64,000 nt of DNA from an uncultured bacterium (GCA_963732385.1 CAVSZB010000004.1:32001-96000); one strand, 5' to 3'. Positions 14,654 through 32,714 are shown, counted from the stretch's first letter. Made by a program: numbers and translations. The notes: generated from the letters alone by a model not told the origin.

Positions 14654-14760
14654 GTCGCCGGCAGCCGTTGCCCGGCGGTGCCGACGCGGCTATCATCGAA
14701 CGGGAATGGTCGAATTTCGCTTGCGGCCCCCCGGCGGTCCGCGTCACCCGGAGAGATGCC

Positions 14761-18147: not shown

Positions 18148-18546
18148 ATGCTTCAGATCACCCGTCAGACAGAATATGCGATTCGTGGTCTGCAGGAACT
18201 GGCGCGACGCAACAGCGACAAGCCGATCCAGCTCAAGGTCATCGCCCAGACCTGCGGCGTTTCTGAGGCGTTCCTGGCCAAGATCTTTCAGATGCTCTCG
18301 CAGCAGGACATCGTGAAGTCCCACCGCGGGGTAAAAGGGGGTTTCTCGCTCGGCCGCAAGCCGGAGGAGATCACTCTGCGCAGCATAGTCGAAGTGTGTG
18401 AGGGGGGCATTGCGCTGAACCACTGCCTGCGTAGCGTCGATCCCTGTGAGCGCCACGAGGATTGTCAGGTATCCGATGCCTGGCGCAAGGCCCAGCAGGC
18501 GCTCGTCAAGGCGCTCGACGAAACGCACCTGGCCGATCTGCTTTAG
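18148..18546 (+). CDS. Rrf2-family transcriptional regulator with three Cys (possible Fe-S sensor)
   Basis: TEYAIRGL...FLAKIFQ...SHRGVKGGFSL...ITLRSIV; C-x6-C-x5-C near the C-terminus. Confidence 0.9.
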   Translation: MLQITRQTEYAIRGLQELARRNSDKPIQLKVIAQTCGVSEAFLAKIFQMLSQQDIVKSHRGVKGGFSLGRKPEEITLRSIVEVCEGGIALNHCLRSVDPCERHEDCQVSDAWRKAQQALVKALDETHLADLL

Positions 18547-19671
18547 TCAGCCAGGTCTCCCCGCTTCGCCGGGAGGCTCCTCTCCGGGGGTGCTTCCGGC
18601 GACAGACGGGGTTGATGATTTTTGGCGCTGCCTCAGTTGCCCGCACGCCGCCGCAATCTCCTGACCACCACTCACCCGGATGTATGCCTGCAATCCCGCC
18701 TCCAGGAGCACGCGCTGGAAGGCGAGCACCTGATCAGCCCCGGGCGGCGACAACTGATCGTCGTCGAGCCGGTTGAGAGGTATCAGGTTTATCTTGAACG
18801 GGCGGCGGGCGACGAGAGCGGCGAGCGCGCGCGCCTCGGAGAGATTGTCGTTCACGCCCCCGATCAGCACATAGCCGAGTGTGACCTTGCGCTGGATGCG
18901 GCGGGCGTACTTCTCGGCCAGTTCCAGAAGCTGTATCAGCGGCGTGCGGGCGGAAACCGGCATCAGGCGCCGTCGCAGTTCGGGTGAAGCGGCGTTGACG
19001 GACAGGGTCAGTCCCACCGCCTGGGGCAGTCGCAGCAGTTGCAGAAGACCTTCCCGGTGCCCGGAGGTGGATATGGTCACCCGGCGGGGCGAGAGACCCC
19101 AGCCGTCGGGAGCGGTGAAGACTTTCAGCGCGGCGGAGACCTGCTCCCAGTTGTCGAGCGGCTCCCCCATGCCCATGAAGACCAGATTGAACCCGCGTGC
19201 GCCGAATCCGGGTGGTGGCTGGGCGGCCAGATCGCGGGCCAGGTGCACTACCTGCTCCTGGATCTCGGCGGAAGTAAGGTTGCGCACGAGCCCTCCCCGC
19301 GCCGTGGCGCAGAAGCGGCACGCCATGGCGCATCCCACCTGGGAGGAGAGGCAGAAAGTGAGGTGGTTCTCCATCGGGATGATGACGCTCTCAACGGTGG
19401 CGCCGTCGCGGAGGCGGAAGAGGAACTTGCGCGTGCCGTCCTCGGCTGCCAGGCGCTCGCTCGGTAACAGCCCCTGCAGGTCGTACAGGTCGGCCAGCCG
19501 GACGCGCAGATCGCGCGGCAGATCGCTGAGGGTTTCCCAGTCGAGTGCGTGCGCCCGGTGCAGCCAGAGCGCCAACTGTCGCGCCCGATAAGCTGGCTGG
19601 CCGAGCCGCTGGAGCAGGGGATCCAGCTCGTGCGCCGGCACGTCGCGCAGCAGCGGTTTAAGACCGGCCAT
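18547..19671 (-). CDS. rlmN: 23S rRNA (A2503)-C2 / tRNA methyltransferase, radical SAM
   Basis: CLSSQVGCAMACRFCAT, FMGMGEPL, AACGQL. Confidence 0.93.
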   Translation of the reverse strand: MAGLKPLLRDVPAHELDPLLQRLGQPAYRARQLALWLHRAHALDWETLSDLPRDLRVRLADLYDLQGLLPSERLAAEDGTRKFLFRLRDGATVESVIIPMENHLTFCLSSQVGCAMACRFCATARGGLVRNLTSAEIQEQVVHLARDLAAQPPPGFGARGFNLVFMGMGEPLDNWEQVSAALKVFTAPDGWGLSPRRVTISTSGHREGLLQLLRLPQAVGLTLSVNAASPELRRRLMPVSARTPLIQLLELAEKYARRIQRKVTLGYVLIGGVNDNLSEARALAALVARRPFKINLIPLNRLDDDQLSPPGADQVLAFQRVLLEAGLQAYIRVSGGQEIAAACGQLRQRQKSSTPSVAGSTPGEEPPGEAGRPG

Positions 19672-19821: not shown

Positions 19822-20181
19822 ATGACCTCGGCGGCCGCAAGTCTGCTCGCGCTGGGCGATCCAAATCGTCTGGTCCTTTTGCGCCTGCTGCTCGATCGCG
19901 CTCTCTCGGTCAGCGATTTGATGGCGGCCACCGGATTGGGCCAATCCCTGGTTTCGCATCATCTGGCGGTGCTGGTTCGTGGCGGCTGGCTGACCGCGCG
20001 GCGTCAGGGCCGCCGTCGCGTCTATGCCCCGATCATCGCCGGCACTCCCCTCGCGCCGCTGGCGGCCTGGATCCGCCGTGAGATCCCGGCCGCCGGCGCC
20101 CTGCCCTTGACCATCGCGCCAGTCGCTACCCCATTCGAGCGGGGGATCGGCCATGGCGTGCTCGAAGACTGGATGCTGTGA
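19822..20181 (+). CDS. ArsR/SmtB-family HTH regulator
   Basis: ALGDPNRL..L..L...SVSDL...QSLVSHHLAVL...RQGRRRVY. Confidence 0.85.
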   Translation: MTSAAASLLALGDPNRLVLLRLLLDRALSVSDLMAATGLGQSLVSHHLAVLVRGGWLTARRQGRRRVYAPIIAGTPLAPLAAWIRREIPAAGALPLTIAPVATPFERGIGHGVLEDWML

Positions 20182-20223: not shown

Positions 20224-21588
20224 TTGCGGACCATCCTCGTCGTTGACGACGAAATCGCCATCCGGACGGCGCTCGCCCGGATCCTGACCTATGAGAATTA
20301 CCGGGTCGTGCAGGCCGCTTCGGGCGCCGCCGCCCTGAAGGCTTTGGCCGGTGAGAGCATTGACGCCGTTCTGCTGGACATCAAGATGCCGGGCATGGAC
20401 GGTTTCGAGGTGCTCGATCTGATGGCGAAGTCGCCGGCGCCGCCGCCGGTGATCGTCATCTCCGGACACGGCAATATTGAAACCGCCGTGGAAGCAGTGC
20501 GCAAGGGCGCCTACGATTTCCTGGAAAAACCACCCGACCGCTCCAGGTTGCTGGTTACTTTGGAGAACTGCCTGGCGCACCGGCGCGTGCTTTTCGAGAA
20601 GGAGGACCTCAAGGCGCGGGGCGGTTTTCGCGATCCCCTCATTGGCGAATGTCCCCAGCTGCGCGAGGTGCGTTCTTTCATCGGGAAAGTCGCCCCCACC
20701 GACTCGACCGTTCTCATCACCGGCGAGAACGGAACAGGCAAGGAACTGGTTGTCCGAGCGTTGCACGAGCAGAGCCGCAGGCGCGAACAGGCGCTCGTGG
20801 AGGTGAACTGTGCCGCCATCCCACGCGAGCTCGTGGAAAGCGAACTGTTCGGGCATGAGAAGGGGGCCTTCACGGGCGCGGAGCGCCAGCGCATCGGCAA
20901 GTTCGAGCAGGCCGACGGCGGCACGCTCTTCCTCGATGAGATCGGCGACATGAGCGACGAGGCGCAGGCCAAGGTCCTGAAGGCTGTCGAGGAAAGCCGC
21001 TTCGAAAGGGTCGGCGGCAACGAAACGTTGCGGACCGATGTGCGCATCGTCGCGGCAACAAACCGCGATCTTGCGCGACCCGACTCCGGCTTCCGGCAGG
21101 ATCTGTTCTTCCGGCTCAACGTGCTGGCGATCCATCTGCCGCCGCTGCGCGACCGGGGCGATGACATTCCTCTTCTGCTTGAGTACTTCATGAGGATGCT
21201 CGCTCCCCACCTGAAGACGGTGCCCCGGGAGTTCAGCCCGGAAGCGCTGGCCCTCCTGCGCGAACACAACTGGCCGGGGAATGTCCGCGAACTACGAAAT
21301 CTCGTGGAGCGGCTGTTGATCCTCACGCCGGGCCCAGTGGTGCGTCCGGTCGATCTGCCTTTGTTGCGGCCGGTTCCCGAGGCTGGATCGGAGTTGGACG
21401 ATCTGTTGTCGTGCAAGGAGTTCCAGGATTTCAAGGCCCGGGCGGAGGCACTTTTCCTGCAGGCGAAACTGCGGGAGAATCGCTACAATGTCAGTCAGAC
21501 GGCAGAACAACTGGGAATGCAGCGGAGTAATCTTTACAAGAAGATCACCCGCTATCGCCTGAAAACCCAGCCCAACAGTCAGGATTGA
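20224..21588 (+). CDS. Sigma54-dependent response regulator (NtrX/NtrC-like: REC-AAA+-Fis HTH)
   Basis: ILVVDDE, LLDIKMP, ISGHG, GENGTGKE, GHEKGAFTGA, FLDEIGD, WPGNVREL. Confidence 0.93.
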   Translation: MRTILVVDDEIAIRTALARILTYENYRVVQAASGAAALKALAGESIDAVLLDIKMPGMDGFEVLDLMAKSPAPPPVIVISGHGNIETAVEAVRKGAYDFLEKPPDRSRLLVTLENCLAHRRVLFEKEDLKARGGFRDPLIGECPQLREVRSFIGKVAPTDSTVLITGENGTGKELVVRALHEQSRRREQALVEVNCAAIPRELVESELFGHEKGAFTGAERQRIGKFEQADGGTLFLDEIGDMSDEAQAKVLKAVEESRFERVGGNETLRTDVRIVAATNRDLARPDSGFRQDLFFRLNVLAIHLPPLRDRGDDIPLLLEYFMRMLAPHLKTVPREFSPEALALLREHNWPGNVRELRNLVERLLILTPGPVVRPVDLPLLRPVPEAGSELDDLLSCKEFQDFKARAEALFLQAKLRENRYNVSQTAEQLGMQRSNLYKKITRYRLKTQPNSQD

Positions 21589-21622
21589 TCGCCTCGGGGA
21601 GCGGGGAGGCGGGTTCCGGCAT

Positions 21623-21651
21623 TTGACTGGGAAAGCCAACTAACCTATAAT
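21623..21651 (+). promoter_or_regulatory. Near-consensus sigma70 promoter for the micro-protein / TPR-activator unit
   Basis: TTGACT (21623-28), 17-nt spacer, TATAAT (21646-51). Confidence 0.8.
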
Positions 21652-21755
21652 TATGCTTGCCTGATCGGGAGGATCGAGGTGGGCGGCCCGCAGCCGGTTT
21701 CCCGCAGCTTCCCTGGCGGGGCCACCCCACGGCCTCAAGGCTGAGGAGATCCGAT

Positions 21756-22091
21756 ATGAGCAAGATTCGATGGATCCTCGTGACCCTGCTGGCTTTGACA
21801 TTCTTCGGCGCTTCGGGTATTACTCCGGCAAGTGCAGCGACCGCGACCCAGCATCATGACCTGACCTTCGCGCCCGGCTCGACGGTGCTCCCACCGACCG
21901 CCGGAGTACTCGGGGGCGGTGGGGGTGGTGGCGTCACGAATGGCGATCCCGACGACATCATCGAGGGTAATCGCGTGTTTGCTGTGGCTGCCCGATCATC
22001 CACCGTGTCCTTTGCGTCGGTCGGTACGGCCGTACTGCTCTGGCTCAAGGTGGGTGGAGTGACCCTTCTGCTGCGGCGCCTGTTGCCGTAG
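21756..22091 (+). CDS. Small secreted/membrane-anchored protein (111 aa): signal peptide, Gly7 linker, NGDPDDIIEG motif, C-terminal hydrophobic helix plus RR
   Basis: GAGGAG RBS then ATG at 21756; MSKIRWILVTLLALTFFGASGITPASA signal; ends ...VGTAVLLWLKVGGVTLLLRRLLP. Confidence 0.75.
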   Translation: MSKIRWILVTLLALTFFGASGITPASAATATQHHDLTFAPGSTVLPPTAGVLGGGGGGGVTNGDPDDIIEGNRVFAVAARSSTVSFASVGTAVLLWLKVGGVTLLLRRLLP

Positions 22092-22175
22092 CGTTTGAGG
22101 CGATCACTAGTCGGGTGGCGGAGCCGCCGAAAGTGTGGGAGTGATCCATCCACCCACTCGCCAGGGGACGGGTTG

Positions 22176-25100
22176 ATGAGCGAGCAGCCGAGCGGGTACA
22201 GCAGGCATGAGGCGGAATATCCCGAGCGTTCGCACGCGCTCGACGCGGAGGAGTGCGATCGGTTGGAGGAGATCGGTGATCTCAACGCGCAGGCCTCTGC
22301 CTACAGTTCCTCGCTGGAGTACTATCGACGACTACTTGAAGGTGCCACGCTGCGGTTGCTCATCCCGGCCCGTCGGGCAGGAGTGCTGCGCAAGAGTGTC
22401 GATGCCGCGCTGAATATCGGTGATCTCGCCCTTGCGGAATCATTGCTTGGACTCGCTCCCTCTCTCTTCGACGCCGCCGACGATCTGACGGCCGAGGAGC
22501 GCGCCCATCTCCTTGCCCCTCTAATGGGCAGACGGGCCATTCTTCTCTCCCAGCTGGGACTGTTCAGCGACGCCCTGCAGGCCGCCAAGCATGCCTTCGC
22601 CATCCTGGCCGTGACGGACGAACATCGGGAGGTGGCGAACCTGCAGGTGACGATGGGGGCCTGCCACCAGCGCCTCGGACGTCTGGACAAGGCGGAGGAA
22701 TTTTATCTCGACGCACTCTCCAGTTATCGGCGGATCGGAGACGAACTGGGTGCGGCCACGCTGCACAACAACCTCGGGCTGCTCCACAAGAACGCCTGTC
22801 GCTGGAACCGGGCGCTCGATCTTCTCGAGAAGGCGGTAGCCATAGCGCAGCGTCATGGCGCCACACATCTGCTGGCCCGCCTGCACCTGAATCGCGGCAT
22901 CATTCTCGGGAAGATCGGACGTCTGGGCGAAGCTCGCGAGGATCTCGACCGCAGCCTGCGCCTGTCGCGGAGCCTCGGTGACCGGAATCGTCAGGCCAAG
23001 GTCTGTCTGGCCTACGGGCTGCTGGAAATGCGTGCTGGACGGCTCGTCAAAGCCGAGGAGTTCGTGCTTGAGGGCAAGAACCTGGCCGAACAGGAGCGGT
23101 ACCTGCGCGAGGAAACAATCGCCGACGAGTACCTTGGGGATATCCTGCTGCTGCGCGGCGAAACCGACAAGGCGCTCTTCAATTACAGTCTGGGTCTCGA
23201 CAAGAGTCGCACGATCGGCAAGGTCTGTGATCTGGAGGGCGAACTGCTCCGTCGGGTCGCCGAGGCGCAGCGGATGCGGGGCGACCTCGAACAGGCGATC
23301 GAAACCGGCCTCGCGGCGGTGGCGGTCTGCGAGAAGTGCGGCGAACTGTACGAACTGGGATTCTGCCATCTGACACTCGGCCGCGCCCGCACGACCCGGG
23401 GAGACTTTGCCGGAGCGGATGCGGAGTTCAGGCGCGCGATCCAGCTGTTCCGGCAGCAGAACCTGCCCCGACTTTGGATCGATGCGATCCTCGCTTTCCT
23501 TGATGCCCGGCTCGCCACGGCCGCCCAGCCGGAATTCCTGCTGTTGCGCCGCTATCTGAGCGAGGCTCAGGAGAGCGGGAGCGCTGTGCTGGATGACCGC
23601 CTGCTCTGCCGGCTGCAGCAGGGGCTGGCGGAAGTGCAGATGCGGCTCGGCCAGTTCGACGACGCTCTGCTGACGGCCTATGAACTCGAGCGCAACGCAG
23701 GCGGGCTGGGCGATGCCGGGCTCGGCCTCGCGATCAGCGATTTGCGCGGACGCATCGAACGCGCTCTGCTCGGCGACATCGGGAGCACCGAGAACCACCT
23801 CCAGGCGATTTCCGGAATCCCGGGCATCTTCAGTTGGCATGATGCCTCCATCCCGCGCAATCTCACGGCGGTCCTGCGGGCGGGGATGGACCGGGTACGC
23901 GCCGATCATGGTTTCATCGCTCTCGACTGGGCAGAGGCCGGGACACATCCGCTGCGTGTGGTGGCGCGCGAGGGGCTTTCCGACAATCTCTCGGATCAAC
24001 TCGGGCGCTGGTACCGCGAGAGTGTCCCCGCCAGCGTGGATTCGGCGAACCCCGTCCTTTTCTCCCGGCTGGCCGGGGGCGAACCGCTGCTGGCCGCCGT
24101 GCCGGCCCTCCGGGACAGGGCGGCCGGGTGTCTCTTCATGCCGATCACGCTCGAGGGCAGACGATTCGGCGTCCTCTACCTGGGACGCAGCAGCCTTGTG
24201 GGTGGTGAGGTGGCCTTCGGGCGCCCCGCGCTCGACTTTCTGGCGACCTACATGGGCTTTCTCGCACTGTTCCTGTTCGAGAAGGGGCGGGGACGTCTGC
24301 CCGGCGAGCCTCTTGTGCCGGTGGCGCCTTCAGGCGAGGCCCCCAGTTTCGAGCAGATCATCACCGAGAACGAGCAGATGCTCGAACTGCTCGCCCTCAT
24401 CCGCAAGGTGGCTCCCAGCGACCTCACCGTTCTGCTGACTGGAGAAACCGGCACCGGCAAGGGGCTGCTGGCTCAGGCAGTCCACTCGCTCAGCCGGCGG
24501 CACGGAGGTCGCTTCCTGGCGATCAACTGCGCGGCGATTCCCGAAACGCTGTTGGAAAGCGAGTTGTTCGGACACGTCAAGGGCAGTTTCACCGGGGCGA
24601 TCGGCGACAAGCGCGGGCTGCTTGCGGAGGCCGCGGGGGGCTCTGTCTTCCTGGACGAAATCGGGAAGATGCCGCTCAGCATGCAGGGCAAACTGCTTCA
24701 GTTCCTGGACACCAGGGTCATCCGTCCGGTCGGCTCCAACCAGGAGCGCCAGGTCGATGTGCGTATCATCTGCGCCAGCAAATCCGATCTCCACGACCTG
24801 ACGGAACGGGGACTTTTCCTCCAGGATCTTTTCTACCGGTTGCTCGATTTTCCGCTCGTTGTACCACCGCTGCGCACCCGTCGCGATGATATCCAGTTGC
24901 TCGCGCACCATTTCATCGAACGCTTTGCCGGGGAACTGGGGATTGCGCCACCCGGCTACACCTCCTCGTTCATGGATGCGCTGGTGGCGCACGACTGGCC
25001 CGGCAACATCCGCGAGCTGGAGAAGTCGGTCCGGAGGGCGATAGTCCTGGCCCAGGAGGAGCGCGTTCTCAAGCCGGAACATCTGCCGCGTGAGATCGGC

Positions 25101-25292
25101 GCGGGACGGTCGGCAGGGAAGGTCGGCCGACCTGCGCCGCTGCGCGAGACTCTGGCGACGGTCGAATGCCGGGAGATCGCCGAAGCACTCCGCCTGACGC
25201 GCGGGAACAAGTCGGAGACCGCCCGGATGCTGGAGATCAGCTACCCCAATCTGCTCAAGAAGATCCGTTTCTACGGCCTTCAGACTTCCTGA
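22176..25292 (+). CDS. Sigma54 enhancer-binding activator with a long N-terminal TPR array, GAF-like domain, AAA+ and HTH
   Basis: TPR-like repeats (e.g. ATLHNNLGLLHKNACRWNRALDLLEKA); GETGTGKG, ESELFGHVKGSFTGA, FLDEIGK, WPGNIREL, GNKSETARML; no receiver domain. Confidence 0.9.
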   Translation: MSEQPSGYSRHEAEYPERSHALDAEECDRLEEIGDLNAQASAYSSSLEYYRRLLEGATLRLLIPARRAGVLRKSVDAALNIGDLALAESLLGLAPSLFDAADDLTAEERAHLLAPLMGRRAILLSQLGLFSDALQAAKHAFAILAVTDEHREVANLQVTMGACHQRLGRLDKAEEFYLDALSSYRRIGDELGAATLHNNLGLLHKNACRWNRALDLLEKAVAIAQRHGATHLLARLHLNRGIILGKIGRLGEAREDLDRSLRLSRSLGDRNRQAKVCLAYGLLEMRAGRLVKAEEFVLEGKNLAEQERYLREETIADEYLGDILLLRGETDKALFNYSLGLDKSRTIGKVCDLEGELLRRVAEAQRMRGDLEQAIETGLAAVAVCEKCGELYELGFCHLTLGRARTTRGDFAGADAEFRRAIQLFRQQNLPRLWIDAILAFLDARLATAAQPEFLLLRRYLSEAQESGSAVLDDRLLCRLQQGLAEVQMRLGQFDDALLTAYELERNAGGLGDAGLGLAISDLRGRIERALLGDIGSTENHLQAISGIPGIFSWHDASIPRNLTAVLRAGMDRVRADHGFIALDWAEAGTHPLRVVAREGLSDNLSDQLGRWYRESVPASVDSANPVLFSRLAGGEPLLAAVPALRDRAAGCLFMPITLEGRRFGVLYLGRSSLVGGEVAFGRPALDFLATYMGFLALFLFEKGRGRLPGEPLVPVAPSGEAPSFEQIITENEQMLELLALIRKVAPSDLTVLLTGETGTGKGLLAQAVHSLSRRHGGRFLAINCAAIPETLLESELFGHVKGSFTGAIGDKRGLLAEAAGGSVFLDEIGKMPLSMQGKLLQFLDTRVIRPVGSNQERQVDVRIICASKSDLHDLTERGLFLQDLFYRLLDFPLVVPPLRTRRDDIQLLAHHFIERFAGELGIAPPGYTSSFMDALVAHDWPGNIRELEKSVRRAIVLAQEERVLKPEHLPREIGAGRSAGKVGRPAPLRETLATVECREIAEALRLTRGNKSETARMLEISYPNLLKKIRFYGLQTS

Positions 25293-25373
25293 CGCGCGCC
25301 AGCCTTTTTTTATAACCTCAGGCCAGATGCGCCCCGTCGTCTGTAAATTGTTTTAATACATTAAATAGCATTA

Positions 25374-25386
25374 TATCAACGACTTG
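25374..25386 (+). promoter_or_regulatory. IHF-like binding site
   Basis: TATCAA-CGAC-TTG matches WATCAANNNNTTR and is preceded by an AT tract (25343-25373) in a GC-rich genome. Confidence 0.65.
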
Positions 25387-25512
25387 CTCGTTCAGGCCCC
25401 GGGCTGTCAACGATTGAATCAATCGCGGGCCCCGACCTCCGATGAATACCGTTTCATGATTTGTAAATGACTTTTCTACAATAACTTAAGAATTTTCGAG
25501 CGAAGCAGTCTG

Positions 25513-25528
25513 TGGCACGCGGAGTGCT
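25513..25528 (+). promoter_or_regulatory. Sigma54 (-24/-12) promoter 1
   Basis: TGGCACGCGGAGTGCT: GG and GC are correctly spaced against TGGCACG-N4-TTGC, downstream of a sigma54 activator gene and an AT-rich region. Confidence 0.75.
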
Positions 25529-25539
25529 GTACATGGCGT

Positions 25540-25883
25540 CTGAAGGGGCTCTCGTTGCAGGGAAACAGCCGCTTCTCAAGGTCCAGGCCGCTGGGGCGGC
25601 AGAATTTGGGGAGGGATATCCGGGTTCGCGATCCTCACTGCTTACCGGCTGAAAGAGGAGGTTCTCTTCGTGGGTTCTGCCTGCGGGTTCTTGAGAGGTG
25701 GGGTCTTGAGGACCGATCGGGCAGAGTAGAGAGAACCGGCGGAACGGATCCCTCCCCGAAGTTCCATTCAAAGCCTGACCAGTCAGGCACGTGTCGGTGC
25801 GAGGAAAGAGCCGGGCTGGCCTTGAATTGGCGAGATTCAAGGTCGGCCGTGCCGGAACCCCGGCGGGCTCTTTCCTCATTTTT
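25540..25883 (+). ncRNA. Candidate sigma54-dependent structured non-coding RNA (~340 nt), family unknown
   Basis: Starts at the predicted TSS of the sigma54 promoter. Stems: 25568-75/25593-600; 25605-17/25748-60; internal TCTGCC/GGCAGA hairpin; 25773-88; GAGGAAAGAGCC (25801-12)/GGCTCTTTCCTC (25866-77) followed by ATTTTT. No credible long ORF. Confidence 0.6.
25801..25883 (+). terminator. Branched 3' stem with U-tract (probable intrinsic terminator of the ncRNA)
   Basis: 12-bp perfect closing stem enclosing two hairpins, then ATTTTT. Confidence 0.55.
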
Positions 25884-26174
25884 CCGTCTCACCGGACCGG
25901 CATGCAGCCTGTTCTCCCCTGTCCTGCGTCATCGGCTGCCAAGTCTGCTCCGCGTCTACTCCTGGAGATCCGCTGGACTCTGTTGAGCACAAAGGGGACG
26001 GTGCCGCCCATCGCGGGCGCACGCCGGCTGGCGGCAGTCGTCCTCTTCCACCTTTCGGGTTGGGGCGGGCTCAGCAATCAAGATCCTCTAATTAAACAAT
26101 TTACGCTGATGCATTCCTCCGCCGCGCACGGCATGCCGCCGTACGGCATCCGATCCGTGGCTGAGCCGTGAGCC

Positions 26175-26190
26175 TGGCACGATGTCTGCG
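26175..26190 (+). promoter_or_regulatory. Sigma54 (-24/-12) promoter 2
   Basis: TGGCACGATGTCTGCG with correct GG/GC spacing, about 80 nt upstream of the ATG at 26269. Confidence 0.7.
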
Positions 26191-26268
26191 ATACTCCAGG
26201 GCCCGGCCGTGACACATCACAGGTGCGGTGCGGGGCTGGCGGCGGCGGACGAAGTGAGGGAGGAAGAG

Positions 26269-27150
26269 ATGAAGCTGGCGCAGGCGGTGACCCTGGCGAT
26301 CCTGCCACTGGCGTTGGCGATCTGGCTCGGCGGCTGTTCCGAAGAAGATTGCATCGAGTGCGTGGACCGAGATCCCCCCGCGGTGCCGACCGGAGTGTAC
26401 AGTGTCACCGGAGACGGCCGTATCACCGTGTTTTGGAACGACATCTACCAGAGCGATCTGGCGGGCTACGCCGTTTATCGGGATGACAATGCCGACGGCG
26501 AATTCGAGCATCTCGCCGATCTCGCCTGGGACGAGAATTGGGATCAGACCACCGGCCTGCACCAGTACGTGGACGAACCGGTCACGAACGGCCTGACCTA
26601 CGAGTACGCGGTCGCTTCGTACGACGTGGCGGGGAACGAGAGCGAGCTCAGCTTCGAGGTCGTGCTCGACACGCCGCGTCCCGAGGGGTTCGATGTCGAT
26701 CTCTTCGACCGTCTCGTCACGCCGGCCGCCAGCGGCTTCGACTTCAGCCGCGCTCTGCGGGTCCCGGCTGCGGATGCCACGGCCGACATCTTTGTCGAGT
26801 GGTCCGGAGATGTCCCCTTCGTCTGTGCCGCGCGCAGTGATGTCGAACTGCAGGACTACGGCAACGTGATGACCGACTCGGGCTTCATCGATCTCGATCT
26901 GCTCAGCTACGCCCCCCTCGAGGGCTGGACGGTCGCGCGACGGGTCGAGGCGATTAGGGGCCATGCCTATGTCGTGCGTGTTGGCACTTCCACCTATCAC
27001 TACGCGAAGATCGCGGTCATGGCTCTCGACGGCATCACGGGCTCGATTACTGTTGATTGGGCGTATCAGATCGCCGCCGACAATCGGGAACTGAAGGCGA
27101 TGCCGGCGCCGCCTCGCACGGGAGTCGTCGTCGAAGTGATGAGTTTCTAG
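26269..27150 (+). CDS. Lipoprotein with fibronectin type III-like domain
   Basis: Lipobox LGG-C; 'PPAVPTGVYSVTGDGRITVFW...DLAGYAVYR...NGLTYEYAVASYDVAGNES' is an FN3-like pattern. Confidence 0.8.
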   Translation: MKLAQAVTLAILPLALAIWLGGCSEEDCIECVDRDPPAVPTGVYSVTGDGRITVFWNDIYQSDLAGYAVYRDDNADGEFEHLADLAWDENWDQTTGLHQYVDEPVTNGLTYEYAVASYDVAGNESELSFEVVLDTPRPEGFDVDLFDRLVTPAASGFDFSRALRVPAADATADIFVEWSGDVPFVCAARSDVELQDYGNVMTDSGFIDLDLLSYAPLEGWTVARRVEAIRGHAYVVRVGTSTYHYAKIAVMALDGITGSITVDWAYQIAADNRELKAMPAPPRTGVVVEVMSF

Positions 27151-27194
27151 GGGCTGCGGCGAGGCCGGCTGAAGGGCCGGCGAGGAGGCGTGAC

Positions 27195-28934
27195 ATGGAA
27201 CATCAGGGATATCGCACTCATCGTGGCATGGGCGGAGTAGCCCGGACCCGTCACGGGTCGGCGCGGCTCTCCCTGCTGCTCGTCGCGCTGTTGCTGGTTC
27301 CCCTTGCCGGAGCGGCGAACCCCGCTGCGAATCCGCCCGACGATGGCGTCGGGCCGAACTGGACCGGCTACGAGACTCAGCCGCTGCGCGTGAACATTAC
27401 GCAAGGACGCGGCGATGGAGATACGTACCGCCGGGGAGAGCAGATCAACATCTTATTCGAGGCGAACCAGGACGCCTACGCAGTCGTCTACCGCATCGAC
27501 TCCGATGGCGGGGTCACCATCCTCTGGCCACGTAGTCGGCTCGACGACGGCTTTGTCTTCGGCCGTCATCAGTACAGCCTGCCGGCCGCCGGGGCGCCCC
27601 GCCTGCGCGCCGGTTCCGAGCCGGGAGTCGAGTATGTCGAAGCCGTGGTCTCCCTGTACCCCTTCGACCTGCGGGATATCGAGGTGGACTTTCATCACGA
27701 GCCCGCGGACGAAGACTATCGCTACGCGGTAGCCGGTGATCCTTTCCTGGCGATGAACGAGGTCAATCACGCGATCACCCGCCTGGAAAACGCCGAGGAC
27801 TTCGTCGTGACGAACTACGTCAGCTACTTCGTCGAACGCCGGGTGGAGCATCCCCGCTACCTGTGCAGTCAGTGCCACGCCGGCGAGAACTACGATCCTT
27901 ACCGTGCGAGCTGCACGATCGCGATTCATCACGACTACGACTGGTCCAACCGCTGGTACGTCCGTTTCGGCTATTACCCGGTCTACCAGTACCCGGCCTA
28001 CTACTATGTCGATCCCTGGAGTTCGCGGCCGTGGATCAACTACTGGTACACCCCCTGGTATGACTGGCCGGGCTACGCGGTGTACGACTGGCCGTTCAGT
28101 TGCTACGTCTGGAACTATTCTCCCTACTGGCATGATGACGCCTGGAGCCGCTGGAAGTCAGGCGATCGTCGCTACACGCCGCTAGACAAGCGCGATATCC
28201 GTGACGAACGCTGGCGGCAGAAGCAGATCGCGCGTTCCACACCGTTCGTCCGCGAGGCGCGTCCGCCGCGCGACGTGGAAGAGGTCCTGCGCACCCGTAC
28301 GAAGCTCGACCGCGATAGGGTCCGCGTGCTGGGGGGCGGGGGCGGCGGACGCGGGGACTTCGCGAACGTGTCCCCCGACCTGCGCCAGCCGGTAACCTTC
28401 AGCGAGGGCCCGCGTCGTGACGCTCGCGAAGGCGGTCTGCGCGTGCGTGAAGACAGGGCACGGGGCGGCCGGGTGCCGCCGGTCGCAGGAGCACGGACGC
28501 GTCTCGGGGACGAACGGCCCGGCCCTGCGCGTCCGGTGTCGCCGGCGCGTGGCACTACCGACCGTGGCGCCATCAGGCCGCTCGATCCACGCAAGCCCGT
28601 CGCTCGTATCTGGTCGGGTGGACGGGGCGGATCGACCACCGAGCAGGGCGAGCGGACAGCGCCCGAGGCCCGTCGTGGGCGCGACACGAAGCCCGTGCGG
28701 GTGCGGGACGGGAGCGGAGAGACGCAGACGCCCGAATCCTCGCGCGGACAGGCGGTCCGCGGCGATAATCGTTCCTCAACCGACCGTCCCACACCGTCGC
28801 TGCGCCGCGAGGATCGCCCGACATCGCCCCCCTCGGCGCGTGCCGGGGGCGGTCCGAGCACAGCGCGTCCGGCGAGTGGCGGAGGCCGGACCAAGGGCGG
28901 CCAGGAAGATAACGGCGAGCAGCGCCGGCGCTGA
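27195..28934 (+). CDS. Secreted DUF4384-like protein with a CxxCH motif, Tyr/Trp/Pro-rich segment and disordered Arg-rich tail
   Basis: GAGGAGG RBS; hydrophobic signal; 'YRRGEQINILFEANQDAYAVVYRIDSDGGVTILWP'; CSQCH. Confidence 0.7.
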   Translation: MEHQGYRTHRGMGGVARTRHGSARLSLLLVALLLVPLAGAANPAANPPDDGVGPNWTGYETQPLRVNITQGRGDGDTYRRGEQINILFEANQDAYAVVYRIDSDGGVTILWPRSRLDDGFVFGRHQYSLPAAGAPRLRAGSEPGVEYVEAVVSLYPFDLRDIEVDFHHEPADEDYRYAVAGDPFLAMNEVNHAITRLENAEDFVVTNYVSYFVERRVEHPRYLCSQCHAGENYDPYRASCTIAIHHDYDWSNRWYVRFGYYPVYQYPAYYYVDPWSSRPWINYWYTPWYDWPGYAVYDWPFSCYVWNYSPYWHDDAWSRWKSGDRRYTPLDKRDIRDERWRQKQIARSTPFVREARPPRDVEEVLRTRTKLDRDRVRVLGGGGGGRGDFANVSPDLRQPVTFSEGPRRDAREGGLRVREDRARGGRVPPVAGARTRLGDERPGPARPVSPARGTTDRGAIRPLDPRKPVARIWSGGRGGSTTEQGERTAPEARRGRDTKPVRVRDGSGETQTPESSRGQAVRGDNRSSTDRPTPSLRREDRPTSPPSARAGGGPSTARPASGGGRTKGGQEDNGEQRRR

Positions 28935-29153
28935 TCCGGACAGGTTGCTCGTCAATTGTTCCCCCCAGCCGCCGGTCGGGGGGGCGCGGATCCGATCCCT
29001 GAAGAGGTTGGCAGCCAAGGGGAACGGGAGCCGCGACAGCCGACCGGCGGTGGTCATCAATGCCGGAGGGGACCGGGGTGAAGCTGTTGTCGATCAGGGG
29101 CGACAATATCGGATCCCCGGCCCTTCCGGACTCTTTCGTCGGCTGACCCTGCG

Positions 29154-29183
29154 TTGACGGGGTCGGCCGTTCGTCCTTATAAT
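29154..29183 (+). promoter_or_regulatory. Sigma70-type promoter
   Basis: TTGACG, 18-nt spacer, TATAAT; upstream of the ATG at 29242. Confidence 0.55.
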
Positions 29184-29241
29184 CGCCACATCTGTGGCCC
29201 GCCCGCGACGAATCCCCGCGCGACCCGTGAGGAAGATCGGC

Positions 29242-30036
29242 ATGCCGAAGTCGCCCAGTTCCCGGATCGGTGTTTCCGTGCCACATCCTGTCCGATGCCG
29301 GCGTTGGTGTGCGCTCCAGGCCGGTGTGATGCTGGTGCTGCTCGTCGCGGCCGTCGCCGTGCCGGCCGCTCCCGGGCCGTTGTCCCGCGCGCCCCGGCTG
29401 TTGCCGTCGGCGGTGCGGGAGGCCCTGGCCGAGCGGTCGGCACCGCTGCTCGCTGACGGTTCCCGTACCCTGCAACGCCAGCGTCTCGCGGGAGTCAGCC
29501 CCGCGGATACGCTGTCAGTGGTCGTGCTGCTCTGCGACTTCGCTGACAGTTTGCTGTATGGTCGGTATGGCACGGTTCCGGGCGAGTTTCCACCGCCCCG
29601 GCAGAGCGATTTCTACTATGCGGCGCACGACTCGCTTTTTTTCGCGCATCAGTTTGCCGACGTGGCCGCGTACTTCGACGCTGTCAGCGGCGGGCGTCTC
29701 ACGGTGCGCTGCGCGGTCGTGGGGGCCGTGGCGAATCTGGCCCGGCCGATGGGCTGGTATGGCGATCACCCCTTGGCGGGTGAGCAGCCGGTGTTGCTGG
29801 CGCGGGACGTGATCGCGGCACTCGACAACAGGGTGGACTTCTCACGCTTCGACACCGTGGTCATCGTACACGCGGGAGCGGGTGAGGAAACCGATCTGCT
29901 GAACGATTCGCCGGAACAGATCTACAGCACCTACCTCGGCCCCGAGGACTTTGCCCGCGCGGCGGAAGATACGATGCTGACCCGGCCTTACCTGCCCACC
30001 GACGATGTCGATGGGGGGGGGATCCGGTCGTTGTGA
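29242..30036 (+). CDS. N-terminal part of an M6 (immune inhibitor A)-like secreted protein; frameshifted at a G9 tract
   Basis: Signal-like region; 'VVLLCDFAD...YFDAVSGG...VDFSRFD..VIVHAGAGEE' is the M6 N-terminal pattern; the ORF ends just after G9 at 30013-30021. Confidence 0.7.
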   Translation: MPKSPSSRIGVSVPHPVRCRRWCALQAGVMLVLLVAAVAVPAAPGPLSRAPRLLPSAVREALAERSAPLLADGSRTLQRQRLAGVSPADTLSVVVLLCDFADSLLYGRYGTVPGEFPPPRQSDFYYAAHDSLFFAHQFADVAAYFDAVSGGRLTVRCAVVGAVANLARPMGWYGDHPLAGEQPVLLARDVIAALDNRVDFSRFDTVVIVHAGAGEETDLLNDSPEQIYSTYLGPEDFARAAEDTMLTRPYLPTDDVDGGGIRSL

Positions 30037-32714
30037 ATCAGGTGCTGGTGCTGCCGGAAACGGAATTCCAGGATCCGTTCGCCGGTTTCGGCGGCTACTT
30101 CGGCTCCCTGGGGGTCTACTGTTTCGAGATTGGACTGCGTCTGGGTATGTTTTCGCTGAGCGACTTCACGCCGGCGGGGCATCCCGACAGTCAGGGCGTG
30201 GGCGAATTCGACCTGATGGGCTACGGACTGTTCGTTGGCGCCGGCTTTATCCCCTGCCAGCCTTCCGCCTTCAACAAGCTCCTCATGGGCTGGATCGAAC
30301 CGTATGCCGTCGAACCGGGCGCCGGAGGGGTTTGGCGTCTGGATCCGATCGAGAGTGCGACCGGGGATTCGCTGGCGGCGCGGGTGGAGATCGGCGGACG
30401 GGAGTACTGGCTGCTCGAGTACCGCCTGCAGGATCCTGACGGGAACCGCATCTTCTCCTTCGCCGGTGATCTCAACGGCAACAATATCCCCGATTTTCTG
30501 GACGCGAATTCGGCCAACGGTGATGGCACCCCGACCGGTTTATTCGATCCCGCGACCGACACGCGTGAACTGCTGACCGGCGCCGAGTGGGACTTCTTCA
30601 TGAGCGAGAACCAGGCGCGGCAGCCAGGCGTGAAGGGAGCCGGCAGCGGGCTGTATGTCTGGCATGTCGACGAGGGGGTGATCACAGACGCCATCGAGGC
30701 GGAGGGAAGTCTCTTCAACTCCGATCCGCGCCGTAAGTCCGTCGATCTGGAGGAGGCCGACGGCATCCAGGATCTCGACTCGCGCCAGCCCTCGGAGTAC
30801 ATGCTCGGTGGCGACTTCGACAGCTTCCGGGGCGAGGACAACGCCACGTTCGGCCCGACGACCAACCCCGACAGCCGCTCAGCCGGCGGCGCCTGGACCG
30901 GCGTGGTGATCGATCAGATCGCCAACGTGGTGGCCGACTCCAGCGCGATCTCCACCGTCCCGCCACGGATATTCATTCGCTACGCCGACCATCTGACTTT
31001 CCGCTGCCGGCGAAACGAACCGGACACCGGCCCCGTGTTGGGCGTGGAGCGGCGGCTGGACGGCGTCGATCTTGCCGGTTCGCACCTGCTGGCGGTGGAT
31101 CTCGACGCGCCGCCCGATGGCCGGCTGGAGATCGTCGCCGGAGGGGCGCGTGGCGAGGTTTTCGCCTTTGAGTCGGACCTGTCCGAGCAGTACGACGGTG
31201 ACGCCACTCCCGCCACCAGCGGGATCCTGGCGATCGGGACCGACGCCGAAGGTGTGCCGGTGCGCTGGAACGGGCCTGCCGCCGCCGGCGATCTCGACGG
31301 GGACGGTCGGCAGGAGATCCTGCTCTGCGGACCGCATGGTCTGTACGCTTTCGACGGTGAGGACGGTCGTGAGCTTGCCGATGGTGACGACGATCCGGAC
31401 AGCTTCGGGCTGCTGGCGCCTCTGGAGCATTGCGCGCTGCCTCCGGTTCTGATTCCCGCCACAGGCGGTGTCGAGGCCTATGACCCGGGCCGCAGCGTCG
31501 TGGCCTGCGTGGTCGAGACGTACGGTGAGCCGGCGCGATCGCGTTTGCGCTGGTTCGACGCCGACGGACGGGACGCTCTGCCGCCGCTGTTGCTGGGGAC
31601 CGTCTCCGTCCTGGCGCCACCGACTCCGGTTGCCGCGACGCGTCTGGCGCTCGCGGTGGTGGATACGGCGACAGGAGAGTCGACGTTGCGGTTGGTCACG
31701 TGGGCCCCGCCGGCGACACCGGTCGTCGCGGCGACCTGGCCGCTCTCCCTGACCCCGGGGACGGCGCCCCTGCTGGCGGTCGTGGCCGAGGGTCCGCTGC
31801 GGGGCGCCGTGATCGTGGACTCGGAGGGTGCGGCCGAGACCGTGTGGTGGAACGAAAACGAGGAATTCGTGCGGCGGGATGCCTGGCCGATCGACTCACC
31901 GGTGCGCAGCCCGCTGTCGGCCGGCTGTGCTTATGTTGGCCAGGGGAGTCTGGCGAGAGTGACGGTTGTGGGCGCGCCGCTTACCGGCTGGCCGATGCGT
32001 CCCCGGCCGGAGATCGACGCCGCACCGGCCGCGATGGCCCCCGCGCCGCTGGAAGCGCGGTCGGCCGGCAGGGATCTGACGCTTTTCCAGAGCCGCGACG
32101 GCCGTCTCTATCTGAACGGGGATGATGGTCGCACCCAGGCCGGCTGGCCGGTGGCGGGACCTTCCGCAGCGTCCGGGACCGGTCTGCTCATCGATCTGGA
32201 CGGCGATTCCAGCCTGGAAATCTGCGTGGTGGGAGCTTTCGCGCGCATCGAGGGCCGGAACGTGGAGACGGGCGGCCTGCGCACGGATCCGGTTTCGCGC
32301 CTGGCGATCTACCGCACGGGGATCGTGGCGGAAGGTGATGGCGGTCCGGGCTGGTCGACATGGCAGGGGAATCCGTGGCGCTGGCCCCTGACGCGCCCGC
32401 AGTCCGTCGCCCCGACGTTGCCGGAGCTGATCTTGGCGGGAAGCCACATCTGCTATCCGACGCCGCTGGACCGCGGCCCCCTGCACGTGCGGGCCGAATT
32501 CGGGGCCGCGTGTGTGGCGCAGGCCACGCTGTATGATCTGATGGGCCAACTGGTGGCGACTTCGACGGCCGTGGCCATTCCTGGCCGCGGGCCGGGTGAG
32601 ATCGTGCTGTCGGCGGAGGGACTCGCCAGCGGGCTTTACCTCTGCCGACTGGTCGCTGAAAGGGCGGGGCTGCCTACCGGGACCAGTGTGGCTCCGGTGG
32701 CGGTGGTGCGCTGA
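30033..32714 (+). CDS. C-terminal part of the M6-like protein with FG-GAP-like repeats and a T9SS-like C-terminal domain
   Basis: 'VLPETE...LGVYCFEIGLRLG...GEFDLMGYG...KLLMGWI', GDLDGDGRQEI and DLDGDSSLEI repeats, C-terminal 'YPTP...YDLMGQLV...LASGLYLCRL'. Confidence 0.75.
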   Translation: MNQVLVLPETEFQDPFAGFGGYFGSLGVYCFEIGLRLGMFSLSDFTPAGHPDSQGVGEFDLMGYGLFVGAGFIPCQPSAFNKLLMGWIEPYAVEPGAGGVWRLDPIESATGDSLAARVEIGGREYWLLEYRLQDPDGNRIFSFAGDLNGNNIPDFLDANSANGDGTPTGLFDPATDTRELLTGAEWDFFMSENQARQPGVKGAGSGLYVWHVDEGVITDAIEAEGSLFNSDPRRKSVDLEEADGIQDLDSRQPSEYMLGGDFDSFRGEDNATFGPTTNPDSRSAGGAWTGVVIDQIANVVADSSAISTVPPRIFIRYADHLTFRCRRNEPDTGPVLGVERRLDGVDLAGSHLLAVDLDAPPDGRLEIVAGGARGEVFAFESDLSEQYDGDATPATSGILAIGTDAEGVPVRWNGPAAAGDLDGDGRQEILLCGPHGLYAFDGEDGRELADGDDDPDSFGLLAPLEHCALPPVLIPATGGVEAYDPGRSVVACVVETYGEPARSRLRWFDADGRDALPPLLLGTVSVLAPPTPVAATRLALAVVDTATGESTLRLVTWAPPATPVVAATWPLSLTPGTAPLLAVVAEGPLRGAVIVDSEGAAETVWWNENEEFVRRDAWPIDSPVRSPLSAGCAYVGQGSLARVTVVGAPLTGWPMRPRPEIDAAPAAMAPAPLEARSAGRDLTLFQSRDGRLYLNGDDGRTQAGWPVAGPSAASGTGLLIDLDGDSSLEICVVGAFARIEGRNVETGGLRTDPVSRLAIYRTGIVAEGDGGPGWSTWQGNPWRWPLTRPQSVAPTLPELILAGSHICYPTPLDRGPLHVRAEFGAACVAQATLYDLMGQLVATSTAVAIPGRGPGEIVLSAEGLASGLYLCRLVAERAGLPTGTSVAPVAVVR

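Follow-up and report, generated by a model that had tools for sequence, protein, structure and literature searches.

Activators of sigma-54-dependent transcription are usually switched by phosphorylation or by small molecules. In LuxO-Qrr of Vibrio and CbrB-CrcZ of Pseudomonas, as proposed for the locus described here, an adjacent small RNA (sRNA) is the main direct output of such an activator, with the same geometry of activator gene, spacer and sRNA, and the Qrr sRNAs feed back on luxO mRNA, for which we propose a parallel below. Peptide signals are read by the RRNPP regulators, in which a pro-peptide is processed outside the cell and re-imported via Opp, the defining step of these systems. 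Their receptors of ~300-450 aa hold the extended peptide in the concave groove of a tetratricopeptide repeat (TPR) domain, as predicted here, and act through a helix-turn-helix (HTH) or a Rap-type phosphatase or anti-activator effector. Here, we describe a locus from a 64-kb window (the whole stretch of DNA that was analysed, GCA_963732385.1 CAVSZB010000004.1:32001-96000, in whose positions all coordinates are given) of an uncultured bacterium of Candidatus Krumholzibacteriota. In this locus, a sigma-54 activator with a TPR sensor is encoded behind the gene of a small exported protein and in front of a sigma-54 promoter, P1, and a structured RNA.

The same geometry is found in nla19 (PxrR)-Pxr of Myxococcus xanthus, where a multi-stem-loop sRNA lies directly behind the gene of a sigma-54 activator, with promoter and enhancer in a ~260-nt spacer (PMC5568312). 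In our locus and its relatives, P1 lies 190-310 nt past the activator stop. Nla19 has a receiver domain, whereas the activator here has a TPR sensor and a paired small exported protein, and Pxr is ~108 nt long, compared with ~346 nt for the RNA here. LuxO and CbrB are also response regulators, fed by phosphorelays, and Qrr and CrcZ are unrelated to the RNA here in sequence and size. GlmY and GlmZ of enterobacteria are sigma-54-transcribed sRNAs as well, tied in their case to envelope precursor synthesis (PMC3162934); their activator GlrR is a two-component regulator, they have no paired small protein, and they show no sequence relation to our RNA.

On the side of the sensor, the Rap-Phr, NprR-NprX, PlcR-PapR, PrgX and AimR-AimP systems place the genes of a secreted pro-peptide and of a cytoplasmic TPR receptor next to each other, as here, and RRNPP is described as a Firmicutes system (PMC10075063). 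In contrast, the host here is a diderm of the FCB group, Krumholzibacteriota; an AAA+ sigma-54 activator and an sRNA serve as output; the receptor has 1038 aa; and the small protein, of 100-119 aa, has an internal conserved box and a C-terminal tail. The locus shares a TPR receptor and an adjacent secreted-protein gene with RRNPP and departs from it in effector domain, size and taxon. By this comparison it is not an RRNPP system, yet it may work like one. We found no description of it in the openly searchable parts of the literature on Krumholzibacteriota, on TPR-containing bacterial enhancer-binding proteins or on RRNPP beyond Gram-positive bacteria, subscription-only papers and supplements being excluded.

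A conserved cassette in Krumholzibacteriota

The original prediction, made from the sequence of the window alone, had listed promoters, a small open reading frame (ORF), an activator, a spacer, an RNA, a lipoprotein and a DUF4384 gene, and each of these elements lies where it had been placed. From 20224 to 32714, all on the + strand, the order is an NtrC-type regulator gene, a sigma-70 promoter, a 111-aa ORF, the 1038-aa activator gene, a gap, a lipoprotein gene, a DUF4384 gene and two M6-like ORFs. The gap, 25293-26268, comprises 976 nt without a convincing gene. The genome to which the window belongs (3.8 Mb in 9 contigs, 96% complete) has a single copy of rpoN.

Near full-length orthologues of the activator are present in 34 of 41 related genomes, and fragments at contig ends in 3 more. 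Our comparison set of 34 loci consists of the window and 33 fetched relatives from six families; we label families within the phylum f1 to f9, with f1 being the window's own. The regulator, small ORF, activator, P1 and RNA are present in the window and the 33 other loci. In line with the check that the original prediction had proposed for homologues of the activator, a small signal-peptide ORF with a GDPD-like box is consistently found upstream, and a -24/-12 promoter with a structured RNA consistently downstream. Regulator and activator are separated by 420-690 nt in most loci (30), and by 2.6-3.3 kb in the remaining four, which belong to f2. From the activator to the lipoprotein gene, the distance is 760-1210 nt (27 loci) or 2.0-4.2 kb (three loci).

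Using tblastn, we found the NtrC-type regulator upstream of the cassette in 34/34 loci, the lipoprotein gene downstream in 30/34 (of the four others, two are truncated by a contig end and two have the gene further on) and the DUF4384 gene downstream in 25/34. A seventh family, f5, has the regulator, the small protein, a shorter TPR activator (855 aa), UAS1 (an enhancer-like upstream activating sequence), P1 and a terminated RNA. The f5 cassette is followed by unrelated cytochrome and oxidoreductase-like genes; the linked envelope operon is absent, and the f5 homologue of the lipoprotein is located elsewhere, without a sigma-54 promoter. Since f5 keeps the cassette without the envelope operon, the universal module comprises the regulator, the small protein, the TPR activator and the RNA, and the envelope operon is a frequent neighbour of it. 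The cassette is a single-copy regulatory unit across the sampled families of Candidatus Krumholzibacteriota.

A structured RNA family behind the activator gene

Between P1 and P2, a second sigma-54 promoter, the loci share near-invariant islands (GAAGGGG, GCAGGGA, ACCGGC, GUUYUC, GAGGUGGGGUC and GGCGAGA) with length-variable stretches between them, and the transcript ends in a long GC stem and a U run. For the 349-nt transcript of the window, the folding energy is -177.3 kcal/mol (z = -5.5 compared with shuffled sequences). The core consists of a long closing helix, UUYGGGAG/CUCCCGAA, a three-way junction and a hairpin with the loop GCUnACCGGC (25644-25649), together with a GUUYUC/GARAAC helix that leads into a long arm capped by the 7-nt loop GGUGGGG (25697-25703). 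The 3' domain has an outer terminator stem, AAGAGCC/GGCUCUU, with a U run, a hairpin with the loop uuGGCGAGA (L3, 25829-25835) and a second small hairpin. Single-sequence folds of at least 20 relatives give the same architecture.

We built a covariance model of the core, R1, with 154 positions and 54 pairs. R1 has 24 full-length matches of 57-133 bits in 34 sources, among them three loci (L022, L037 and L040) that were outside model building. In the R1-fitted alignment of 23 sequences, 78.9% of cells pair, compared with 40-51% when the partners are slid by 1-3 columns, and both sides change in 48 of the 54 core pairs. The core covariation score is 0.512, against 0.237 in shuffled alignments (0/500 reach the observed value) and 0.12-0.21 with slid partners. 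Because the fitted alignment leans towards the model, the 3' domain was counted on a plain MAFFT alignment, where 84.5% of cells pair against 31-54% with slid partners and 18 of 27 pairs change on both sides. RNAalifold, run on a plain alignment of the whole RNA, recovers the GGUGGGG arm, the terminator and the GGCGAGA hairpin. No Rfam match was obtained at E values up to 1 in a cmscan of 21000-29500 with 4227 families and permissive filters. Thus, the structured RNA of ~340 nt in the original prediction is one of ~346 nt with a fold backed by covariation, and it is a new, well-supported family.

It is extremely improbable that the gap encodes a small protein and not an RNA. ORFs of 126-143 aa can be drawn there on both strands, but such ORFs are expected because the genome is 63% GC. 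The conservation takes the form of short islands, length-variable stretches and compensatory paired changes, and the gap is empty in every locus in tblastn with the flanking genes, a search that did not include a translated search of the gap itself.

R1 has one match in the window's genome and matches 65 of 151 phylum genomes, always in one copy, including 55/60 in f1 and 9/9 in f6. R2, the model of the 3' domain, is confined to f1 (20 loci) apart from one weak f6 and two weak stray matches; it does not reach f2 or f7, though the RNAs there carry a GGCGAG hairpin. A search with a DNA pattern of the RNA, covering one genome per species of bacteria and archaea, gave 90 places, of which 80 were fetched. 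R1 scores 37 of these 80 public loci at 73-134 bits, and those with a phylum-level label are all Krumholzibacteri*; the remaining ones are bacterial metagenome-assembled genomes (MAGs) without a phylum label, "uncultured Fibrobacteraceae" MAGs and a single 2-kb contig with a Chromatiaceae label. The 43 loci without an R1 score, from Streptomyces, Acidobacteriota and others, are chance matches. The Chromatiaceae MAG contig (L132; JBGSTR010000061.1, 2067 nt) has a full-length R1 match of 122 bits and is probably a mis-binned Krumholzibacteriota fragment. Many contigs with the RNA and the locus (in the range L066-L145) are labelled "uncultured Fibrobacteraceae bacterium", and the taxonomy labels of these MAG sets look unreliable.

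Contigs from RNA libraries of close relatives, 90-99% alike, fall on the RNA. Two metatranscriptome runs of different studies gave contigs at 25571-25721 and 25704-25854 (word depth 31), and at 25657-25793, respectively. Within 25300-26400, the RNA-library contigs are confined to 25571-25854, with none on the preceding 270 nt or the following 545 nt, and a contig from a DNA run covers 25824-26117. One RNA run (X24) gave no contig on the region, and the search of sequencing runs gave small word shares only. These contigs are a supportive hint of expression, and they count for less because they are blind to strand, ends and level and may be DNA.

The genome has csrA, and a CsrA sponge of the CsrB/RsmZ type was considered. 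This was ruled out by the nature of the conservation, which lies in the loop sequences GGUGGGG, ACCGGC and GGCGAGA and not in many exposed GGA motifs.

Two sigma-54 promoters with different enhancer-like sites

The spacer behind the activator gene is AT-rich, with a GC content of 0.52 at 25200-25599 compared with 0.60-0.68 on either side. Sites that match the UAS1 palindrome at 12 or more of 14 positions occur 31 times in 25/34 loci. Every one of them falls 13-203 nt past the activator stop, and the remainder of the ~350 kb has none. In six loci there are two strong copies, 64-80 nt apart. By eye, strings like CAATAACTTA or AACAAnnnnTTA lie between UAS1 and P1 in most loci. The predicted AT-rich region with IHF-like and palindromic sites is borne out by the GC dip and UAS1, with the IHF-like string recognized by eye. 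As a separate observation, a GC hairpin with a U run lies right after the activator stop (6226-6290 in L156, 25293-25320 in the window) and looks like the activator's own terminator; UAS1 is in or just beside it.

Within the window, TGGCAC-N6-TGC has no matches other than P1 and P2. Two or more such matches were found in 19 of 100 shuffles of the window; two matches in one window are within chance, and conservation across loci decides. With the strict pattern, P1 is found 190-310 nt past the activator stop in 23/30 loci, and with a relaxed pattern (GGYAY-N5-NYG[CA], in which GG-N10-GC is kept and the flanks are loosened) in 26/27. P2 lies 100-150 nt 5' of the lipoprotein start in 29/30 loci with the strict and 27/27 with the relaxed pattern. 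The same scan of the loci gave no sigma-54 promoter match on the opposite strand. Both predicted sigma-54 promoters are therefore present and kept across loci.

In most families, the lipoprotein gene follows the RNA on the same strand, so the P1 transcript might be a long cis-acting leader of the lipoprotein operon, such as an attenuator or a riboswitch-like element. We consider this very unlikely. A strong conserved terminator ends the RNA, and a separate conserved sigma-54 promoter stands between it and the operon. In addition, the distance from RNA to P2 grows to 2-4 kb in f2 and L040, unrelated genes follow the RNA in f5 and, as a weak hint, the RNA-library contigs stop before 25855.

The two promoters differ in their surroundings. 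In relatives, P2 is preceded at ~130-200 nt by a different element, UAS2, read by eye as YGTCCCC-N4-GGGGAC followed by TGTCC...GCACA in most loci, and the UAS1 palindrome is absent upstream of P2. Because the palindromes are unlike, the two promoters probably answer to different activators; P2 is probably served by an activator other than the TPR protein, for which the upstream NtrC-type regulator is a candidate. The original prediction had a peptide-sensing TPR activator control both the sRNA and the envelope genes. The layout and the co-fold described below agree with such an activator, but the different palindromes and the unlinked envelope genes in f5 make a single activator for both outputs doubtful.

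We infer from the arrangement of sites which activator uses which promoter, and the converse assignment has to be weighed: the NtrC-type regulator could drive P1, alone or with the TPR activator, and the TPR protein would then work at P2 or as a co-activator. Synteny is as tight for the NtrC-type regulator as for the TPR protein: the regulator is present in all 34 loci and also in f5, where P2 and the envelope operon are unlinked. Both are candidates for action at P1, a point that counts against our assignment. Two activators on one sigma-54 sRNA promoter are known from qrr1 of Vibrio fischeri (PMC10162802). However, f2 keeps UAS1 and P1 behind the TPR gene despite 2.6-3.3 kb between the regulator and the small ORF, and the geometry is that of nla19-pxr, with the sRNA after its own activator. 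We regard control of P1 by the NtrC-type regulator as unlikely.

A TPR activator paired with a small exported protein

The activator is predicted to contain a TPR superhelix (~30-560), a weak GAF-like region (563-672), an AAA+ domain with a GSFTGA loop (728-893), a lid and a C-terminal HTH_8 domain. Pfam matches are TPR_12 (6.4e-23), TPR_MalT (8.6e-13), Sigma54_activat (PF00158, 1.9e-62, 728-893), AAA_lid_14 and HTH_8 (1.5e-8); Pfam gives no receiver domain, and the GAF_2 match is weak (E 0.0048) and under the cut-off. Of the predicted receiver-less TPR-GAF-AAA+ architecture, the TPR and AAA+ parts and the lack of a receiver stand, and the GAF domain stays below threshold. Residues F805, T806, G807 and A808 of the sigma-54 loop are invariant in 26 orthologues. 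Together with the Fis-type HTH, the -24/-12 promoter, the enhancers and rpoN, this GAFTGA-type AAA+ loop identifies a bacterial enhancer-binding protein. The TPR superhelix is its only recognizable sensor. The sensor part has 241 database homologues, with generic names among the 120 matches listed, and in the ESM Atlas it matches generic TPR and GAF clusters only.

One f5 locus, L171 (G038:C11:669300-674700), deviates: its TPR sensor is a 534-aa open frame that ends before the AAA+ domain, so the activator there may be split or decayed, and no P1 is found within 800 nt of the stop of this frame.

Directly 5' of the activator, 34/34 loci have, by eye, a + strand ORF of 91-119 aa that ends 18-117 nt before the activator start, and a scripted filter for a hydrophobic N-terminus and an acidic box recovers it in 27/34; f5 loci likewise carry a small signal-peptide ORF there. 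In the window, residues 1-27 form a predicted Sec signal peptide whose site reads ASA-A; behind it come a variable linker rich in Gly, a conserved acidic box and a hydrophobic or amphipathic C-terminal tail. The small proteins have Lys/Arg, a hydrophobic core of 12-15 residues and a small-x-small site in common. In the alignment, identity is only 23% overall and the sole invariant column is G63, the first residue of the box. The box reads GDPDDxIxGN in f1 and f6, GDADDYANGR in f3 and f7, GDADG in f4 and GDDDxPNR in f2. The protein has no Pfam or NCBIfam family and no usable ESM Atlas match. Two f3 loci (L043 and L045) have the parts in a different order, with the signal peptide directly followed by an amphipathic helix rich in Trp/Tyr and the GDADDYANGR box nearer the C-terminus. 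The 111-aa secreted micro-protein of the original prediction thus has, as far as its Sec-type N-terminus indicates, a counterpart in every locus of the set.

A site of the form TTGACn-16/18-TAnnnT lies 95-181 nt 5' of the small ORF at 9 or more of 12 positions in 25/27 loci and at 10 or more in 16/27, and a Shine-Dalgarno sequence precedes the ORF. The strong sigma-70 promoter that had been predicted is near-consensus in the window and kept in relatives.

Predicted binding of the acidic box in the TPR groove

We co-folded activator residues 1-700 with residues 28-111 of the small protein, each as an alignment of 26 orthologues. The co-fold score was 0.81 (0.83, 0.80 and 0.81 in three runs), and the best of 3 controls scored 0.00. 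The mark used for such scores is reached by 116/157 solved complexes and 2/215 mismatched pairs, a calibration that is only rough here as custom alignments were used. The runs share at least 47% of contacts. The confident interface comprises small-protein residues 60-76 (VTNGDPDDIIEGNRVFA), which correspond to the conserved box, on the concave face of TPR residues 35-393. The original prediction had proposed co-folding the TPR domain with the peptide NGDPDDIIEG, and the predicted interface falls exactly on that box.

Conservation in the groove is consistent with this model. The 59 groove contacts have a mean identity of 0.67, compared with 0.58 for the other 312 residues of 30-400 (Mann-Whitney p = 0.008), and 24% of them, against 14% of the other residues in that range, have an identity of at least 0.9. 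N199, D352, E356, E393 and C208 are invariant, and R166, K73, K205, K246 and N239 have identities of 0.92-0.96. The contacts include an Asn ladder (N198, N199, N206 and N239) and the basic residues R72, K73, R119, R166, K205 and K246, which suggests that the predicted groove suits an acidic peptide. The nearest solved relatives of the sensor by sequence are a bacterial KLC-like protein (5o01, 6.8e-9), GPSM2 (LGN/Pins), KLC1/2 and, with weak similarity, Rap proteins (8rte, Rap105, 6.5e-6; 6t3h, 0.015), all groove-binding TPR proteins for which peptide complexes have been solved. The best solved relatives are the TPR domains of kinesin light chain and LGN/Pins, eukaryotic scaffolds without transcription output, unlike the activator here; their grooves take up short peptides of acidic or hydrophobic character. 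Taken together, the co-fold supports binding of the box in the TPR groove, short of demonstration.

Several points speak against binding. The score is a model confidence and not a measurement, and it was obtained with custom-made alignments whose rows are in the same genome order in both. Because peptide complexes of the same TPR type have already been solved, it may also in part reflect those known structures. The small protein may instead be an envelope or surface protein that shares the operon or regulon, with the TPR domain sensing another cytoplasmic partner and the co-fold being a false positive. Such a role would fit the signal-peptide topology with its AXA site, a length about twice that of a typical RRNPP pro-peptide, and a conserved amphipathic C-terminal tail that goes unused in the co-fold, where the small protein's own fold is uncertain (partner pLDDT, a per-residue model confidence, of at least 39, 40-48). 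However, the pair with the activator is kept in every locus, even where insertions in f2 split off the regulator; the sole conserved segment of a fast-evolving protein sits in the groove in the model, with three controls at 0.00; and the groove residues are basic, conserved and matched to the acidic box. We therefore hold this alternative to be possible and rather doubtful.

Candidate feedback on the activator mRNA

In 19 genomes, we screened for duplexes between four conserved segments of the RNA and the start regions of the regulator, small-protein, activator, lipoprotein and DUF4384 genes nearby. The L3 loop (GGCGAGA) against the activator start region gave a mean z of -1.69, with 53% of loci below -1.5, whereas the other 19 loop-by-gene combinations, L1, L2 and the 5' end included, had mean z values of -0.81 to +0.41 and no signal. 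In the activator mRNA, which reads yCUCGCC(A/G)GGGGA, the CUCGCC abuts the Shine-Dalgarno sequence in 26/34 loci, mostly at -16 to -21; CTCGCC was scanned from -40 to +14 of the estimated start, with 0.043 occurrences expected per 55-nt window.

The RNA and mRNA motifs co-occur in 25 loci and are both lacking in 4 (f3 and f4); the RNA motif occurs alone in 4 loci, and the mRNA motif alone in a single locus, whose RNA is cut off by the contig end. Two f5 genera (g39 and g40) have CCCCAC in place of CUCGCC before the Shine-Dalgarno sequence, the complement of GUGGGG in the RNA. Weighing against a role of the duplex, it is short (6-7 bp), its flanking pair is not kept, and it is absent in f4 and f7. 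From these sequence patterns, we give feedback of L3 on activator translation about an even chance. The 5' untranslated region of the small-protein gene was also considered as an sRNA target and rejected, as it has CCCCAC in 3/27 and GCCGGT in 4/27 loci and no conserved complement.

Feature coordinates and neighbouring genes

The features of the locus are collected in Table 1.

Table 1. Positions of the features in the window, with the basis of each assignment
Feature	Position	Strand	Basis or remark
NtrC-type response regulator and sigma-54 activator (receiver, AAA+ with GAFTGA, HTH_8)	20224..21588	+	Pfam Response_reg 7e-30, Sigma54_activat 1.2e-65
Sigma-70-type promoter of the small-protein gene, TTGACT-17-TATAAT	21623..21651	+	11/12 positions
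Small exported protein, 111 aa	21756..22091	+	Sec-type N-terminus; alignment A7
Conserved acidic box GDPDDIIEGNR, residues 63-73	21942..21974	+	predicted TPR ligand
CUCGCC followed by AGGGGA, Shine-Dalgarno of activator mRNA; predicted L3 pairing site	22157..22168	+	duplex screen
Receiver-less sigma-54 activator, 1038 aa	22176..25292	+	Pfam domains
UAS1, enhancer-like palindrome CTGTAAAttgttTTAATAC, 19 bp, consensus CTRTMAA-N5-TTKAYAG	25341..25359	.	pattern scan
Second, weaker UAS1-like site CTGTCAAcgattGAATCAA	25404..25422	.	by eye
AT-rich IHF-like bend region between UAS1 and P1	25458..25496	.	by eye, unscored
Sigma-54 promoter P1 TGGCACgcggaGTGC, TGGCAC-N5-GTGC	25513..25527	+	predicted start near 25539
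Structured sRNA, ~346 nt: 5' G-rich segment, three-way-junction core, 3' terminator domain	25539..25884	+	predicted ends
sRNA core domain	25608..25759	+	model R1, 132.5 bits
sRNA 3' domain	25799..25884	+	MAFFT alignment, RNAalifold
UAS2-like region upstream of P2	25952..25985	.	by eye, unscored; degenerate in the window
Sigma-54 promoter P2 TGGCACgatgtCTGC, TGGCAC-N5-CTGC	26175..26189	+	predicted start near 26200
Lipoprotein, 293 aa, lipobox LGGC followed by an acidic Cys-rich stretch	26269..27150	+	alignment A5
Exported DUF4384 protein with a long basic low-complexity tail	27195..28934	+	Pfam DUF4384 7.7e-12

The upstream regulator scores 422.8 bits with NCBIfam ntrC and 410.1 bits with NtrX, both under their cut-offs, and no histidine kinase gene adjoins it. 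Downstream, the lipobox and the DUF4384 match agree with the predicted lipoprotein and DUF4384-like genes; the lipoprotein has no Pfam or NCBIfam family.

Beyond the DUF4384 gene, two ORFs in different frames (29194-30036 and 30033-32714, with a 4-nt overlap) correspond to successive stretches of a single NCBIfam model, that of a type IX secretion system (T9SS)-dependent M6-like inactivated metalloprotease, at profile positions 83-206 and 277-531. The second ORF has an FG-GAP repeat. The parts are adjacent in relatives too, so this is a split or frameshifted gene or a conserved two-gene form. We considered the M6-like protein as a processing protease for the small protein and rejected it, as NCBIfam describes an inactivated M6-like T9SS cargo; the place of HExxH reads FEIGL (by eye), which makes a protease unlikely.

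Just upstream of the NtrC-type regulator lie genes for an Rrf2-family regulator (18148-18546, +), an RlmN-like radical-SAM methyltransferase (18547-19671, -) and an ArsR/SmtB-type regulator (19822-20181, +). Further upstream lies a 1496-aa ORF (13537-18027). Judged by eye only, its C-terminal two thirds resemble a G-protein chaperone fused to a B12-dependent acyl-CoA mutase, and the ~400 residues at its start seem to be a spurious, GC-rich addition.

Discussion

We propose a circuit in which the sigma-70 promoter would express a protein of ~105 aa that is exported via its Sec signal peptide, and the basic, Asn-lined TPR groove of the cytoplasmic activator would hold the acidic box GDPDDxIxGN. 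Occupancy of the groove would set the activity of the AAA+ ring. The activator would bind one or two UAS1 palindromes behind its own stop codon and, helped by the IHF-like bend, fire P1. The resulting RNA of ~346 nt, ending at the intrinsic terminator, would be the dedicated output of the cassette and present its conserved G-rich loops GGUGGGG, ACCGGC and GGCGAGA for action in trans, and one of these loops may pair with the CUCGCC beside the activator Shine-Dalgarno sequence to give feedback. P2 and the envelope genes would form a neighbouring sigma-54 unit with a different enhancer and another activator. As a whole, from exported protein and TPR-sensing activator to P1 and an sRNA output with feedback, we find this reading somewhat probable. 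The anatomy of the locus, its conservation, the fold of the RNA and its occurrence in RNA libraries are what the data show, while ligand binding, the route of the exported protein to the cytoplasmic sensor and the targets of the RNA are parts that we infer. Two topologies of the ligand are possible: a processed peptide could be re-imported, as in RRNPP, or an unexported precursor could be sensed. A stronger version, in which the box peptide is cut from the exported protein, re-enters the cell and binds the TPR groove, so that a population signal is read via one sRNA with feedback on its receptor, seems improbable to us.

Further observations weigh against the circuit. With its cleavable-looking signal peptide, the small protein should leave the cytoplasm, where the TPR sensor, which lacks a membrane segment, sits, and no gene of an importer or processing enzyme is linked to the locus; two Opp-type binding proteins (SBP_bac_5) are encoded elsewhere in the genome. 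R1 matches 0/81 genomes in f2, f3, f4, f5, f7, f8 and f9 (0/71 without f8 and f9). The families that R1 misses keep P1, followed by a divergent terminated RNA with a GUGGGG loop and, in f2 and f7, also a GGCGAG loop; in f3, no RNA was found behind the activator (R1, 0/33 f3 genomes).

Even if the idea of a ligand fails, what is left is a new RNA family that shows strong covariation and whose promoter, enhancer and terminator are defined. As far as the searched literature shows, peptide signals read by cytoplasmic TPR receptors are a speciality of Firmicutes. In the cassette described here, a TPR sensor and a sigma-54 motor form one protein, which is paired phylum-wide with an exported partner whose sole conserved segment is predicted to lie in the groove, so that the cassette looks like a form of peptide signalling not known in two-membrane bacteria. 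If the predicted binding is true, RRNPP-like logic would extend to diderm bacteria and sigma-54 activators would gain a new type of input, within a compact three-part circuit of peptide, activator and promoter/RNA that could be rebuilt in E. coli without culturing the host.

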